A stretch of 64,000 nucleotides of DNA from a bacterium (GCA_003252295.1 QKEV01000007.1:9632-73631); one strand, 5' to 3'. Counted from the first letter of the stretch, positions 33,995 through 38,805 are shown. Translations and numbers: made by a program. The notes: a model not told the origin generated them from the sequence alone.

Positions 33995-34174
33995 CTACTT
34001 CTTCCAATCTTCTATCACGAGTTTTTTGCCATGTTTTTTGACCACCACTTTCTGTTTCTCGCGCCAGCCAAGCTCGCGTATAAACTCAATAGGTAGTGAG
34101 ACAACAATTGTGCGACCACTACCCACCTTACTTAGTTTACGCACATTTCGTTCATCTAATGATCTTCGTGCCAT
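33995..34174 (-). CDS. Candidate 59-aa AbrB/MazE/SpoVT-type (swapped-hairpin) DNA-binding protein
   Basis: Hand translation gives MARRSLDERNVRKLSKVGSGRTIVVSLPIEFIRELGWREKQKVVVKKHGKKLVIEDWKK, which is the AbrB/MazE pattern (…GGS..VTLPKEW.ELG…). It is below the track cutoff. Confidence 0.4.
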   Translation of the reverse strand: MARRSLDERNVRKLSKVGSGRTIVVSLPIEFIRELGWREKQKVVVKKHGKKLVIEDWKK

Positions 34175-34191: not shown

Positions 34192-34229
34192 CTGCTCATG
34201 AATTAACTCTAGAATTAATTCATGAGCAG
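34192..34229. repeat. 15-bp perfect inverted repeat CTGCTCATGAATTAA-N8-TTAATTCATGAGCAG
   Basis: Read directly. It lies 18 bp upstream of the AbrB-like start and just outside the AT-rich islet boundary. Confidence 0.8.
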
Positions 34230-35392: not shown

Positions 35393-35827
35393 CTACTTAC
35401 CTTTAACCACCTCTTTAAGCATAAGCAACTTCTTTCTATCTTTTTCCCTATTCATCTTTTTATACGTCTCATACTCTGACTGCAGAGACATGCATGGTAT
35501 AGGCACATCATACTTGTTCACAGTGACTACATGCTTCATAAAATCATGAGGACGTAAACCCTTAGGTTCATCTGAAGCAAAGTTAATCTCAACATCATCA
35601 ACACAGAACACTAGCTCAAGGTACCCGTGTTTATTTATTATCGGAGTATTGAATATTTCTGCTACAGCAAGTATCCCCTCCTTATCAGTAAGAAAATCGA
35701 CATCAGAAGGTTCAGTGTGTATTCCCTGAAACTTAAGGTTAAGCGTACCTATAAGAACATAGTTAATATGTTGTAACTTTTCTGTAATAGTTTTAAATAT
35801 CTTTGCTAAGACAACATCATCCATCAT
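35393..35827 (-). CDS. Small nucleotidyltransferase (MNT / ANT(2'')-Lnu-like minimal NTase fold)
   Basis: VLIGTLNLKFQGIHTEPSDVDFL fits the NTase signature hG[GS]x9-13Dh[DE]h; 144 aa. Confidence 0.5.
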   Translation of the reverse strand: MMDDVVLAKIFKTITEKLQHINYVLIGTLNLKFQGIHTEPSDVDFLTDKEGILAVAEIFNTPIINKHGYLELVFCVDDVEINFASDEPKGLRPHDFMKHVVTVNKYDVPIPCMSLQSEYETYKKMNREKDRKKLLMLKEVVKGK

Positions 35828-35882
35828 ATATACATATTAATACAGCAAGCCATACTCACACTAAGAAGTAAACAAAAATCGA

Positions 35883-36118
35883 ACCCCGATTGCCGCCGTG
35901 AAAACCCGAAGACGTGCCCAAGCACGTCTATCGGACCTTGCAGAGAGAGTTTCTGATGCTTACCCCGCCCCACGGCGGGGTGAATGAAGAAACTATCCTG
36001 CAAGGAGGACAGTCTATAAGACAGTCAAATGACATCGCCTTTACAAGGGCAATCGGATCATACTCCTTGGAGTCTCACAACTAAAAACCACCTCAAGTGC
36101 AACAAGAGGTGGTTTTTA
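35883..36118 (+). ncRNA. Unclassified structured RNA candidate with an intrinsic terminator
   Basis: A GC-rich (~55%) segment in an AT-rich, coding-free region. It has a long-range closing helix CCGAUUGCC (35886) / GGCAAUCGG (36048). Within it lie nested hairpins GACGUGC-CCAA-GCACGUC and CCUUGCAG…AGUUUCU…CCCCGCC-CCAC-GGCGGGG…AGAAACU…CUGCAAGG. It ends in a perfect terminator AAAACCACCUC-N11-GAGGUGGUUUUUAG (36084..36118). Confidence 0.3.
36084..36118. terminator. Intrinsic terminator (11-bp perfect stem AAAACCACCTC / GAGGTGGTTTT, T-runs on both sides)
   Basis: Read directly. Confidence 0.65.
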
Positions 36119-36126
36119 GTTGTGAT

Positions 36127-36185
36127 GTGACCCAATAGCGTGGCTTTCAGAACTGTATGAGAATAAAGTTAATATCAGTAACTCT
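36127..36185 (+). repeat. Repeat B copy 1 (GTGACCCAATAGCGTGGCTTTCAGAACTGTATGAG…), about 85% identical to 37001..37060
   Basis: Aligned by eye; it begins with the GTGACCC core shared with the tRNA-Glu 3' end. Confidence 0.6.
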
Positions 36186-36206
36186 ATTAAAGATTTAGAA
36201 AATATT

Positions 36207-36235
36207 TTAACCCCAACTTAGTTGTTGGGGTTAAG
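36207..36235 (-). terminator. Terminator of the NT5C gene (TTAACCCCAAC / GTTGGGGTTAA perfect stem)
   Basis: Read directly, 20 nt downstream of the stop on the - strand. Confidence 0.5.
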
Positions 36236-36254
36236 CACTTCTGCTTGAGTGTTA

Positions 36255-36833
36255 TTATAGTACTTGAATGATTTCATCCCACGAAGAGACTCTTCTGATA
36301 TTTTTCAAAACGTTGGAATGTTTATTCCAAGGGCAATCAAACAACAATACCTGTATCGCATTTTCTGCACAATCTACTGCATGTTTAGTGTGATCTTCAA
36401 CCATTACGGTAATTCCAAGTTCCTTACATATTTTAGATTTTTTTTCACTTTTTCCATTTAAGCTGTATGAATTAGTAAAATAAATATCTAAAAATAAACC
36501 TGGAAAATGTTTTTCAATCCACTCTTTTGTTTGTTCAATCATATTGTCTCTTCTCCCAGTAATTGCAAACAGCTCAACACCACCTTCTTTCAACTTGTTC
36601 AGAGAAGTGACCGACTTAATCACAGGTAGAATTTTATTACAATGACTTTGGTCTTCAAAAAACATATCAACCTTACGAACCGCTTCTTCTTTTGAACCAC
36701 CCCAAACTTTCCAAAAATCATAGGAAGTGAAATCATTTTTTGATAGATTTCCTCCAAATGTTTCATTATGAAAGCGCGCAAGTGTTGGAACAAAATCTGC
36801 GATCACATCATCTATATCAATACCGATTTTCAT
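36255..36833 (-). CDS. 5'(3')-deoxyribonucleotidase (HAD superfamily, NT5C/YorS-like)
   Basis: N-terminal DIDDVIAD HAD motif I and a GGGAG Shine-Dalgarno motif; full-length similarity to NT5C-type nucleotidases. Confidence 0.7.
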   Translation of the reverse strand: MKIGIDIDDVIADFVPTLARFHNETFGGNLSKNDFTSYDFWKVWGGSKEEAVRKVDMFFEDQSHCNKILPVIKSVTSLNKLKEGGVELFAITGRRDNMIEQTKEWIEKHFPGLFLDIYFTNSYSLNGKSEKKSKICKELGITVMVEDHTKHAVDCAENAIQVLLFDCPWNKHSNVLKNIRRVSSWDEIIQVL

Positions 36834-36940
36834 ATTTATTCTCCCTTTTAAATATGATTAACATGCAGGATGTATTTTCTAAGGTATTTCTAACATTTGT
36901 ATAAAATAAAGCAAACTGAAAATCAGAAGTTCCTGATTAG

Positions 36941-37007
36941 ACATGAAAGTTCTGAACACCCTATGTGGTGCTCTAAAATACATTGAAAAATATAGCTTTA
37001 AAATCTG
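36941..37007 (+). repeat. Repeat A copy 1 (66 nt), an exact duplicate of 38411..38476
   Basis: AGTTCTGAACACCCTATGTGGTGCTCTAAAATACATTGAAAAATATAGCTTTAAAATCTGTGACC occurs twice. Confidence 0.85.
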
Positions 37008-37060
37008 TGACCCATTAGCGTGGCTTTCAGAGTTGTATGAGGTAAAAGTGTAATCAGTCA
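37001..37060 (+). repeat. Repeat B copy 2
   Basis: GTGACCCATTAGCGTGGCTTTCAGAGTTGTATGAG…. Confidence 0.6.
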
Positions 37061-37144
37061 ACTTTTGGTTTTAGTTGTTACATAGCACATTTCTACAACC
37101 ATCTACGCAGAAACACTTGTACACTCGACCTGTATAGGTCTTTT

Positions 37145-37579
37145 GTGTATTCTGAATGTATGACATGTAAAGAAAAAGCAACAACGTATGTACAGTCGCA
37201 AAAGTCTTTACATTTATATCCTCGTGTGCAAGATGCTTTTGAAGAAGTGTTATGTTCATTGTCTGAAGCAGAACTTGATTGGGTTTGTGGCAATTTAGAA
37301 TTGATGGTTTTACACGAACAAGCAGTTGCACAAGTGATGCATTTTGATCCAAAAAAAGCCGCTTTTGCGGTGATGCAATTCACATTTTATGACGACATGC
37401 CTGGCGAGGTGTTGCGATGGGTAATAGCACATGAACTGGGGCATGCTATGCAAAAAAGAAATTGGAGAGAGGGTGATGGAACAGGTTTGGAAGAGGATGC
37501 AGATATTTGTGCTGAACAGTGGGGTTATCTGAAGACAAAAGAGATTGAAGAGTATCTACGTAAGAGGAGAGAAAATTAA
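37145..37579 (+). CDS. Putative HExxH zinc metallopeptidase (ImmA/IrrE- or SprT-like minimal domain)
   Basis: VIAHELGHAM motif in a 144-aa protein. Confidence 0.45.
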   Translation: MYSECMTCKEKATTYVQSQKSLHLYPRVQDAFEEVLCSLSEAELDWVCGNLELMVLHEQAVAQVMHFDPKKAAFAVMQFTFYDDMPGEVLRWVIAHELGHAMQKRNWREGDGTGLEEDADICAEQWGYLKTKEIEEYLRKRREN

Positions 37580-37811
37580 GACTGTTTTATAGAAAAACTT
37601 CATCTCAACTATGCCTGTTATCTGGATATTTGTTAGAGATTAAAGGGTTCAGGTAGTTTTATCTGACACAATTCTAGAGTTAAAAAACACATAATAAATC
37701 ACGTGTTTTTTGTTTTACTTGCTTAAATGGATGTGTTTAGAACACATGATTAGTACTATTGATAATTTGATTCCAAACAACATGAATATCTTTCTGTTTA
37801 CTCCATATATT

Positions 37812-38396
37812 CTATATTTTTTTTCTTAAAATTTGATGCTGAGGATAACCTTCGTCCGTTAATCCATAAGGCATAAGATCTGCACATTCCACGTTGAGTA
37901 GTACGGTCAAAGCTTCCTTTATTGTGTTGTATTTTTCTTTACCAAGCTTCTCTTCTTCGGTGACTCCAAAACGATACCAAGTGTAAAAGTGCCACAGTTC
38001 ATGCATTATATTTTTTCGAACAGTTTCCCTTGGGACAGTTACATACAAAAAATTATTTTCAATACTGTAAGGGTTTCTGTTGTTTACGGTTAAATAGGCT
38101 GTTATGTCTTGAGGCAACGTAACACCAAAAATTGCTTCTGCTCTTTTGTAATACTCGTTTGCTATTTGTAACCACTCTGTCAAATATTTTTCAATATATG
38201 TTTTGATGTTTACATTATGTCCCAGTAAATATTCATCAATGAAATTTGAAACAGTTTCCTCAGTCTGATTTTCACCATATTTTGTGATCAGCAGTTCATA
38301 AACCTTTGTTGGATTTGGGTTGTTGTTTGAGCTCTTACCTTTGTTGAGTAAACACCAAATATCTCTTTCTTTGTTGTATTCAAAAATAAGTTTCAT
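37812..38396 (-). CDS. Hypothetical protein with an HExxH motif (NIMHELWHFY)
   Basis: 194 aa. Repeat A copy 2 lies 15 bp upstream of its start. Confidence 0.4.
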   Translation of the reverse strand: MKLIFEYNKERDIWCLLNKGKSSNNNPNPTKVYELLITKYGENQTEETVSNFIDEYLLGHNVNIKTYIEKYLTEWLQIANEYYKRAEAIFGVTLPQDITAYLTVNNRNPYSIENNFLYVTVPRETVRKNIMHELWHFYTWYRFGVTEEEKLGKEKYNTIKEALTVLLNVECADLMPYGLTDEGYPQHQILRKKI

Positions 38397-38410
38397 AACA
38401 AAAGTATATC

Positions 38411-38476
38411 AGTTCTGAACACCCTATGTGGTGCTCTAAAATACATTGAAAAATATAGCTTTAAAATCTGTGACCC
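38411..38476 (+). repeat. Repeat A copy 2 (66 nt, exact), fused to a tRNA-Glu 3'-end-like sequence
   Basis: See copy 1. Here the repeat continues into CCACGGAGA…. Confidence 0.85.
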
Positions 38477-38650
38477 CACGGAGACGCTTCGCTATCGAAC
38501 TCGCTCCCTATGGTCGCTCTCATAAAACCCACGGTTTTATGATATTCCTCCACGGGAAACCAGCAGGTTTCCCGACCCCTTCCGCTGTTCGATTCTCCGA
38601 CAAAATCTAAGCAACAAAAAATACCCTAGTAAAAAACTAGAGTATTTTTT
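38470..38650 (-). pseudogene. Scrambled tRNA-Glu-derived fragments (degenerate att-site/tRNA remnant), not a functional tRNA
   Basis: A 17-nt direct repeat CTGTGACCCCACGGAGA matches the tRNA-Glu 3' end. Next to it are a T-arm-like segment carrying a 9-nt insertion and an oppositely oriented TTCGATTCTCCG fragment. No acceptor-stem pairing is possible. Confidence 0.4.
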
Positions 38651-38657
38651 GTCGCTG

Positions 38658-38729
38658 TGACCCCACGGAGAATCGAACTCCGATTACCAGGATGAAAACC
38701 TGGCGTCCTAGCCGTTAGACGATGGGGCC
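38658..38729 (-). tRNA. tRNA-Glu (anticodon UUC)
   Basis: GGCCCCATCGTCTAACGGCTAGGACGCCAGGTTTTCATCCTGGTAATCGGAGTTCGATTCTCCGTGGGGTCA folds as a canonical 72-nt cloverleaf: a 7-bp acceptor (one G-U pair), a 4-bp D-stem, a 5-bp anticodon stem, the anticodon loop UUUUCAU, T-loop TTCGATT and discriminator A. CCA is not encoded. Confidence 0.85.
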
Positions 38730-38805
38730 ATTTGTTGTTGCATGATTCTACAATATTTTCAGTAATTTTCAAAGTATTTTGCTGTTTACGTAAAAAATAT
38801 ATATA

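Follow-up and report, generated by a model that had tools for sequence, protein, structure and literature searches.

The described systems closest to the locus analysed here are bacterial small RNAs (sRNAs) that converge on a neighbouring gene and end at a bidirectional Rho-independent terminator. Like them, the element at this locus is a discrete non-coding unit of about 200–250 nt with a compact fold and ends in a stem followed by a U-tract, and the symmetry of its A-tract and U-tract would serve both convergent units; its short single-stranded blocks are conserved while its helices covary. Unlike them, it forms a closed four-way junction and has more than 60 pairs, which exceeds the structure of a typical base-pairing sRNA.

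The element can also be compared with riboswitch aptamers and other junction RNAs (the four-way-junction cobalamin class, the raiA motif), with which it has in common a multi-helix junction closed by a helix P1, conserved purine-rich junction strands, variable peripheral helices and a terminator directly downstream. It differs from them in that it has no downstream gene on the same strand and no Rfam aptamer match, and no antiterminator alternative was found. With T-box leaders it shares a link to a specific tRNA, a terminator at the 3' end and a Glu codon followed by A in the 5' block (GAA-A in the window, GAG-A in the homologue L060 described below). However, it matches no Rfam T-box model, contains neither a T-box sequence nor an antiterminator bulge and has no downstream gene on the + strand, and the bases of its "codon" are paired within helix P2, where the change is compensated on the other strand; a T-box identity was rejected on these grounds. 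As to the context only, the surroundings recall CIME-like arrays at tRNA sites, in which direct repeats of a tRNA 3' end bound the modules and the old end and terminator are displaced distally. The differences are that there is no integrase, that the modules are single-gene units with a repeated 66-nt upstream segment, and that the structured element appears to predate the insertions and not to be part of them.

The Patescibacteria (CPR) have tiny genomes; to our knowledge almost no regulatory RNA has been described in them, and we know of no established sRNA biology in genomes of this type. An RNA of about 200 nt that is strongly structured, covaries and lies outside all Rfam families offers this group a concrete candidate for a new class of RNA, and its position against tRNA-Glu, being conserved, is a starting point for the search for further members and for functional tests. 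With two members it is still a candidate class, and such a class would be no surprise for the field.

Structure of the Element

The window analysed in this work is a bacterial DNA stretch of 64,000 nt (GCA_003252295.1 QKEV01000007.1:9632-73631), and all coordinates refer to it unless stated otherwise. An initial annotation, made from the sequence alone, had pointed to a GC-rich, highly structured RNA candidate at 35883–36118. Folding gave the same picture: the region 35886–36056 folds as a closed four-way junction (P1/P2, P3, P4, P5), followed by the hairpin P6 and by a terminator hairpin. The following features were recognised.

35886–36056, + strand: core four-way junction, closed by P1 and P2; its minimum-free-energy structure is also the centroid
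35886–35894 / 36048–36056, + strand: helix P1, CCGAUUGCC / GGCAAUCGG, strands 153 nt apart
35896–35910, + strand: 5' conserved block CCGTGAAAACCCGAA, covering the 5' strand of P2 and the junction; its counterpart in L060 is CCGTGAGAGCCTGAA
35898–35902 / 36040–36044, + strand: short helix P2, GUGAA / UUUAC, immediately inside P1
35906–35934, + strand: hairpin P3 of 12 bp with a CCAA loop and one bulged A; it contains GACGUGC-CCAA-GCACGUC
35936–36005, + strand: long hairpin P4 in three segments with the tip CCCCGCC-CCAC-GGCGGGG; the lower 17 bp are common with L060
35960–35983, + strand: GC-rich tip of P4, UUACCCCGCC-CCAC-GGCGGGGUGA, present in the window only and absent from L060
36006–36033, + strand: most conserved block, P5 and the single-stranded CAAAUGAC
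36008–36026, + strand: hairpin P5, GUCU-AUA-AGAC, with an A/A mismatch
36062–36073, + strand: small hairpin P6, CUCC-UU-GGAG, between the core and the terminator
36075–36125, both strands: bidirectional intrinsic terminator, a perfect 20-bp stem (36075–36094 / 36106–36125) with an 11-nt loop

Thus, the long-range closing helix, the GACGUGC-CCAA-GCACGUC hairpin and the three-segment hairpin that had been proposed by eye correspond to P1, P3 and P4. Together with its terminator, the + strand folds at -121 kcal/mol, compared with -61.6 +/- 4.7 kcal/mol for dinucleotide shuffles (z = -12.6); for the 195-nt core alone, with identical minimum-free-energy and centroid structures, z = -9.6. No shuffle matched the native folding energy, either for the core or for the core with the terminator. 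The 63 predicted pairs of the window copy comprise 60 Watson-Crick and three G-U pairs, with no mismatch. A reading of the P4 internal loop as a K-turn or C/D box was rejected, as the sequence does not fit it.

The GC content amounts to 50.4% over 35883–36118 and to 53.8% in the core, compared with 33–34% in the flanks and 41% in the whole window. The contrast with a context of about 33% GC therefore stands, while the figure of about 55% first given for the stretch was somewhat too high. Each of the six frames is interrupted by two to five stop codons and the longest ORF has 56–59 aa, in agreement with the view that the span contains no credible ORF. A word-based protein search with the overlapping 56-aa ORF gave no match, and the exact translations of element ORFs that were tested, including one of 33 aa discussed below, were absent from a collection of 15 billion proteins.

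The terminator deserves separate mention. It was described as a textbook intrinsic terminator, and a terminator it indeed appears to be: in both the window and the L060 copies a GC-rich stem is followed by a U-run. The one-directional textbook form does not apply, since an A5 tract upstream mirrors the U5 tract downstream, both tracts are paired within the stem (U5 inside its 3' arm), and this symmetry suggests that the terminator is bidirectional. A simple terminator scan did not flag the hairpin 36075–36125, which is explained by its 11-nt loop and by the location of the U-run within an extended stem. An integron attC site was considered for 36075–36125 and rejected: by eye, TCACAAC / GTTGTGA does not fit RYYYAAC...GTTRRRY, and no integrase is present.

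A Homologue With Compensatory Changes

Scanning of metagenome contigs with the 3' two-thirds of the window tRNA-Glu yielded 11 loci. One of them, L060 (a metagenome contig of an uncultured bacterium), carries a tRNA-Glu identical to that of the window and, at 1463–1635, a homologue of the element. There the element converges on the tRNA, and the hairpin at 1636–1676 directly abuts the intact tRNA-Glu. The homologue was matched by nhmmer (E = 5e-7) and, over its full length (L060:1463–1623), by a covariance model with the window sequence as its only source (56 bits, E ~1e-15 to 6e-15). Folded independently, L060 forms the same junction with P1 to P6, and the fold z-scores of this copy are -7.6 and -4.8; low folding energy thus characterises both copies.

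MAFFT alignment of the two copies revealed two conserved blocks, CCGTGArArCCyGAA and AGGACAGTCTrTAAGACAnnCAAATG. The second block is nearly identical in L060, the remainder of the element is about 50–60% identical, and the sequences of P3 and P4 are unrelated. The place of P3 is taken in L060 by a 9-bp hairpin of unrelated sequence (CUGAAAUGU / AUAUUUCAG), and that of P6 by GGCUC-ACC-GAGCC. The two copies also differ in their left flanks, which are unrelated, and the L060 element has different genes as neighbours.

Base pairing was compared in two alignments, one derived from the covariance model and the other made by hand and fitted to the structure. In the model-derived alignment pairing holds in 96.4% of the cells, and 14 pairs have both partners changed; none of 500 shuffles reached this value, and slid partners gave zero to two such pairs. 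The 51 pairs common to both copies in the hand-made alignment divide into 18 compensatory pairs, three with a change in one partner, 29 identical ones and one A-C mismatch. Pairs changed on both sides occur in P1 (four), P2 (one) and P4 (six, with 100% of the P4 cells paired). Helices are thus kept through compensatory changes, and the proposed covariation check on a homologue came out in favour of the RNA, with 14–18 pairs changed on both sides in one pairwise comparison, since only two members are known. The option of a novel sRNA, raised in the initial annotation, has thereby gained comparative support. Taken together, these data show that the element is a genuine conserved folded non-coding element, absent from Rfam 15.

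We then summarise the distribution of the element and its relation to known families. At gathering thresholds, Rfam 15 detected only the tRNA-Glu(UUC) in the whole window and nothing on the element, which agrees with the earlier statement that it belongs to no recognisable family. At E<=10, scans of the element and of its L060 homologue gave nothing but noise of microRNA, snoRNA or terminator type that scored far below threshold, and the two copies had no family in common; ARAGORN found no tRNA or tmRNA at the element. SRP RNA, RNase P RNA, 6S RNA, tmRNA and Y RNA were rejected, as no model matches and the topology does not fit. No match to the element was obtained by blastn in phage and plasmid records, nor in IMG/VR with four exact element patterns that included the conserved P5 block. 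The 20-mer CGATTGCCGCCGTGAAAACC had eight matches among GTDB species representatives, all of them chance matches inside protein genes (it encodes AIAAVKT). A 22-mer from the 3' end of the element found nothing in metagenome contigs, where the source contig itself was also unmatched. No third member was detected by the model R2 over 57 sources (489 kb), nor a homologue at the ten remaining tRNA-Glu loci; look-ups of the right-flank genes by exact match revealed no alternative strain context, and a literature search found nothing relevant to the element. Judging from the sequences, the element represents a putative new family with two known members, and the outcome of the GTDB 20-mer scan and of the searches in IMG/VR, phages, plasmids and the ten tRNA-Glu loci indicates that this family is narrow.

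Organization of the tRNA-Glu Locus

In L060 the element and the tRNA-Glu are uninterrupted neighbours, while in the window they are separated by about 2.5 kb with the following organization.

38657–38729, - strand: tRNA-Glu(UUC), detected by Rfam 15 and ARAGORN
36126–38656, - strand: insert of about 2.5 kb between the element and tRNA-Glu, composed of three modules, each beginning with TGTGACCC
36126–36133, - strand: TGTGACCC, an apparent 8-nt relic of the tRNA-Glu 3' acceptor end beside the old terminator
36126–37005: module 1, with the NT5C gene
37006–38467: module 2, with genes for two HExxH proteins
38468–38656: module 3, with a second structured segment and the present tRNA terminator
36948–37013 and 38411–38476: repeat D1 (66 nt, 100%), at the right end of modules 1 and 2
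36126–36169 and 37006–37049: repeat D2 (44 nt, 86%), at the left end of modules 1 and 2, beginning with TGTGACCC
38468–38484: repeat D8 (17 nt, 100%), an exact copy of the tRNA-Glu 3' end

The sequence TGTGACCC is the antisense of the tRNA-Glu acceptor end and stands immediately after the hairpin 36075–36125. This junction, the hairpin followed by TGTGACCCCACGGAG, recurs at the intact tRNA of L060 and at position 38655 of the window, where the 3' end of the present tRNA-Glu likewise abuts a terminator hairpin of its own (38610–38656). In addition, the window hairpin shares about 70% identity in its 5' arm with the hairpin of L060 that abuts the intact tRNA-Glu. By these sequence relationships, the hairpin 36075–36125 can be recognised as the putative ancestral terminator once common to the element and tRNA-Glu. 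As the L060 locus is uninterrupted, the ancestral unit would have consisted of the element, the shared terminator and tRNA-Glu, split in the window by cassettes. The element thus appears to be linked to tRNA-Glu and not to its protein-coding neighbours, a linkage, through the tRNA 3' end and the terminator, that had been missed in the earlier reading of the locus.

Since every module starts with a copy of the tRNA end, the modules seem to have been added successively at the 3' end of tRNA-Glu. No integrase was found in 36126–38656, and the cassette-end repeats D1 and D2 had no match in IMG/VR; the array looks like cassettes mobilised in trans. The locus thus displays, at base-pair resolution, the accretion of cassettes at the 3' end of a tRNA where no integrase is resident. 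It should be mentioned that two minus-strand genes, encoding NT5C and a 194-aa HExxH protein, have the 66-nt D1 segment upstream of them.

Between the present tRNA-Glu terminator (38610–38656) and the 17-nt copy of the tRNA 3' end, there is another segment that is GC-rich and structured (38485–38605; z = -8.1) and has no Rfam match; it holds a T-loop fragment in inverted orientation, GTTCGATTCTCCG. In the loci L054 and L057, a related insert has a 12-bp closing helix that consists of inverted T-arm copies (CGGAGAAUCGAA / UUCGAUUCUCCG). The stretch from tRNA-Glu to tRNA-Val in L054 (2697–4037, about 1.3 kb) contains no ORF above 87 aa; it is packed with hairpins, with repeat units of 38 and 65 nt and with copies of the tRNA-Glu 3' end that occur in either orientation. 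This mosaic suggests that, in this lineage, the tRNA-Glu locus is a hotspot of rearrangement.

The 5' edge of the element itself resembles the tRNA:

35877–35906, - strand: 30-mer identical at 24/30 positions to window tRNA-Glu positions 36–65 (anticodon loop to T loop)

The identity of this 30-mer to a CAAT-variant tRNA-Glu is 26/30, and it overlaps the 5' strands of P1 and P2. The resemblance is significant (blastn-short E = 0.007; 0/2000 shuffles reach the score), and nhmmer aligns the 30-mer to the loci L037/L034; its anticodon-stem part (GGCGG) differs in type from the resident tRNA. The right end of the element is also similar to tRNA-Glu (p ~0.009), mostly as the complement of the 5' resemblance through P1, so that it does not count as independent evidence. 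No significant resemblance to tRNA-Glu was found in the L060 copy, which indicates that it is not a property of the family. We therefore rejected the possibility that the whole family is tRNA-derived or a tRNA gene, as the resemblance of the window copy to antisense tRNA-Glu is confined to its 5' 30 nt and no tRNA model matches. The 30-mer probably reflects local recombination or gene conversion at the hotspot, and part of the closing helix could be a recombination scar.

Genes Flanking the Element

Two protein-coding genes flank the element in the window.

35393–35827, - strand: nucleotidyltransferase-like (NTase) gene, 144 aa
36255–36833, - strand: NT5C-type nucleotidase gene, 192 aa, with its own terminator at 36234–36207

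As both are on the minus strand, they are not the two convergent islet genes that had been described. The NTase-like protein matches the aminoglycoside 2''-adenylyltransferase family at sub-threshold level only, and its gene lies in a low-GC islet together with a P-loop kinase-like gene and the NT5C-type nucleotidase gene. A near-perfect 38-bp palindrome without spacer (34192–34229, CTGCTCATGAATTAACTCT / AGAATTAATTCATGAGCAG), probably an operator, adjoins a small minus-strand gene (33995–34174) with weak MazE/AbrB-like similarity.

The element lies 55–60 nt upstream of the NTase start codon on the minus strand, and it had been suggested to act there as a cis-acting 5' leader or riboswitch of this gene. 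Relatives of the NTase are few (three among 5.8 billion protein clusters), and its homologues with 47–49% identity have upstream gaps of 55–100 nt behind unrelated genes, without the element. The L060 copy in turn has no NTase neighbour. The extended -10-like sequence TGTATTAAT, read from the sequence of the 55-nt spacer, lies downstream of the element, and on the minus strand the element is followed by neither a terminator nor an SD-sequestering platform. The relatives of NT5C come from Kaiserbacteria- and Wolfebacteria-type CPR bacteria, an origin that places the organism of the window, and the three whose contigs were examined (69%, 61% and 59% identity) have no element beside them. The element thus travels neither with NTase genes nor with NT5C. 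Homologues of both flanking genes without the element led us to reject the leader or riboswitch reading, which we regard as barely credible.

Discussion

We consider it fairly probable that the element is the gene for an independent structured small non-coding RNA of the + strand, sharing an ancestral terminator with tRNA-Glu. The RNA would be about 195 nt long, or about 245 nt with the terminator, and would be transcribed independently from the + strand. In the ancestral state, kept in L060, the element would converge on tRNA-Glu(UUC) with a terminator common to both; in the window, three integrase-less cassettes at the 3' end of tRNA-Glu would have moved the element 2.5 kb off, and the old terminator with the 8-nt tRNA stub would have been displaced together with it. 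As a working guess, the conserved P5 hairpin and the single-stranded CAAAUG next to it may allow the RNA to act in trans, either as a scaffold that binds proteins or as a base-pairing regulator, while the variable P3 and P4 arms may be structural spacers.

The evidence on the functional strand is modest and leans towards the + strand. In the hand-made alignment this strand has five G-U pairs versus one A-C opposition, and its unpaired bases are A-rich. The paired A-tract and U-tract of the hairpin in both genomes further imply that a second transcription unit converges on it. An opposite arrangement, in which the minus strand is functional as a structured 3' extension made when transcription of tRNA-Glu reads through the hairpin, or as a processed co-transcript, seems unlikely to us. 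It would account for the slightly better single-sequence fold of the minus strand in the window (-124.6 versus -121 kcal/mol) and in L060 (-80.1 versus -78.6), and the A-C opposition in P1 of L060 would become G-U. Overall, the two strands hardly differ in folding energy, the values for the alignment being -61.7 for the + strand and -57.7 for the minus strand. The sole clear promoter nearby is that of tRNA-Glu (38745–38772, - strand), a near-consensus sigma-70-type sequence (TTGAAA, 16 nt, TAGAAT) about 15 nt before the 5' end, from which this CPR-like organism appears to use conventional promoters. On the + strand, a consensus scan of the window found no sigma-70-like promoter upstream of the element, although the consensus may not suit this organism; upstream of the L060 element there is one chance-level site, 90 nt away. 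On the other hand, a minus-strand element would stand behind a strong terminator, and the roughly 15 nt between them could not accommodate a promoter. The window copy now has two terminators ahead of it (36234–36207 and 36125–36075) and is 2.5 kb from the tRNA, and yet it has 0 mismatches in 63 pairs. Moreover, the five G-U pairs of the + strand would turn into A-C mismatches, and the L060 element, read on the minus strand, is not followed by a terminator and runs into the end of a convergent ORF.

Another explanation dispenses with a functional RNA altogether: inverted tRNA-Glu fragments, left by repeated site-specific recombination, would form a structure or scar at the DNA level, possibly still in use as a recombination site. 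The 30-mer 35877–35906 is a significant antisense copy of tRNA-Glu positions 36–65, P1 is built from the tRNA segment GGYAATCGG on both strands, and the locus is pieced together from repeats and copies of the tRNA 3' end. The segment 38485–38605 (z = -8.1) and the L054 insert are both closed by inverted T-arm copies, and L054 has 1.3 kb of similar non-coding mosaic. A scar would be expected to decay, yet 50 of the 51 shared pairs are kept at about 55% sequence identity; P3–P6 bear most of the compensatory changes and do not resemble the tRNA, the conserved P5/CAAAUG block has no tRNA counterpart, and the resemblance is missing from the L060 copy. We give this explanation little probability. 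It is quite improbable that the RNA is a CPR-specific partner of tRNA-Glu, a riboregulator kept tail-to-tail with the tRNA that acts on it or on its precursor by read-through antisense transcription or direct pairing. With G-U pairs allowed, pairing is possible in both copies between the conserved block GUGARARCC and the anticodon loop GGUUUUCAU, and 30 nt of the window copy are near-complementary to tRNA-Glu; this reading is not favoured because the same bases are explained by helix P2. An orphan riboswitch-like sensor of the + strand, whose terminator decides on read-through into the antisense of tRNA-Glu, would have the aptamer-like layout seen here, in which a P1-closed domain is followed by a short hairpin and a terminator, as well as the conserved, purine-rich junction nucleotides, and in L060 read-through would run antisense to tRNA-Glu. 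However, no alternative antiterminator pairing was found, no ligand class is suggested, no Rfam aptamer matches, and the window element is still intact although cassettes now stand in place of its downstream target, so that we hold such a sensor to be very improbable. An mRNA for a protein of about 30–33 aa with a structured 5' part, akin to those type I toxin mRNAs that have a bidirectional terminator in common with a convergent partner, has a very small chance of being correct. A conserved AUG opens a frame of 33 aa in the window (36029–36130) and of 30 aa in L060, both reaching UGA inside or just past the terminator; AAGGAGG stands ahead of the P5 hairpin in the window, and the long-range closing helix between the 5' and 3' parts of the element recalls the hok and fst mRNAs. 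Against this, the two peptides share no similarity (BLASTP of the 33-aa versus the 30-aa peptide, nothing at E<=100), are polar and have no membrane helix, unlike the conserved small hydrophobic peptides of type I toxins; the frame crosses the terminator stem of 20 bp, L060 has a weak SD-like sequence, and the translations tested are missing from the 15-billion-protein collection.

Two Logan contigs of the run SRR7216773 (L007 and L001, two samples) end at positions 35906 and 36033, about 30 nt inside each edge of the element. With k = 31, such ends point to a branch of the assembly graph, which suggests a variant or a second copy of the element core in the SRR7216773 community.
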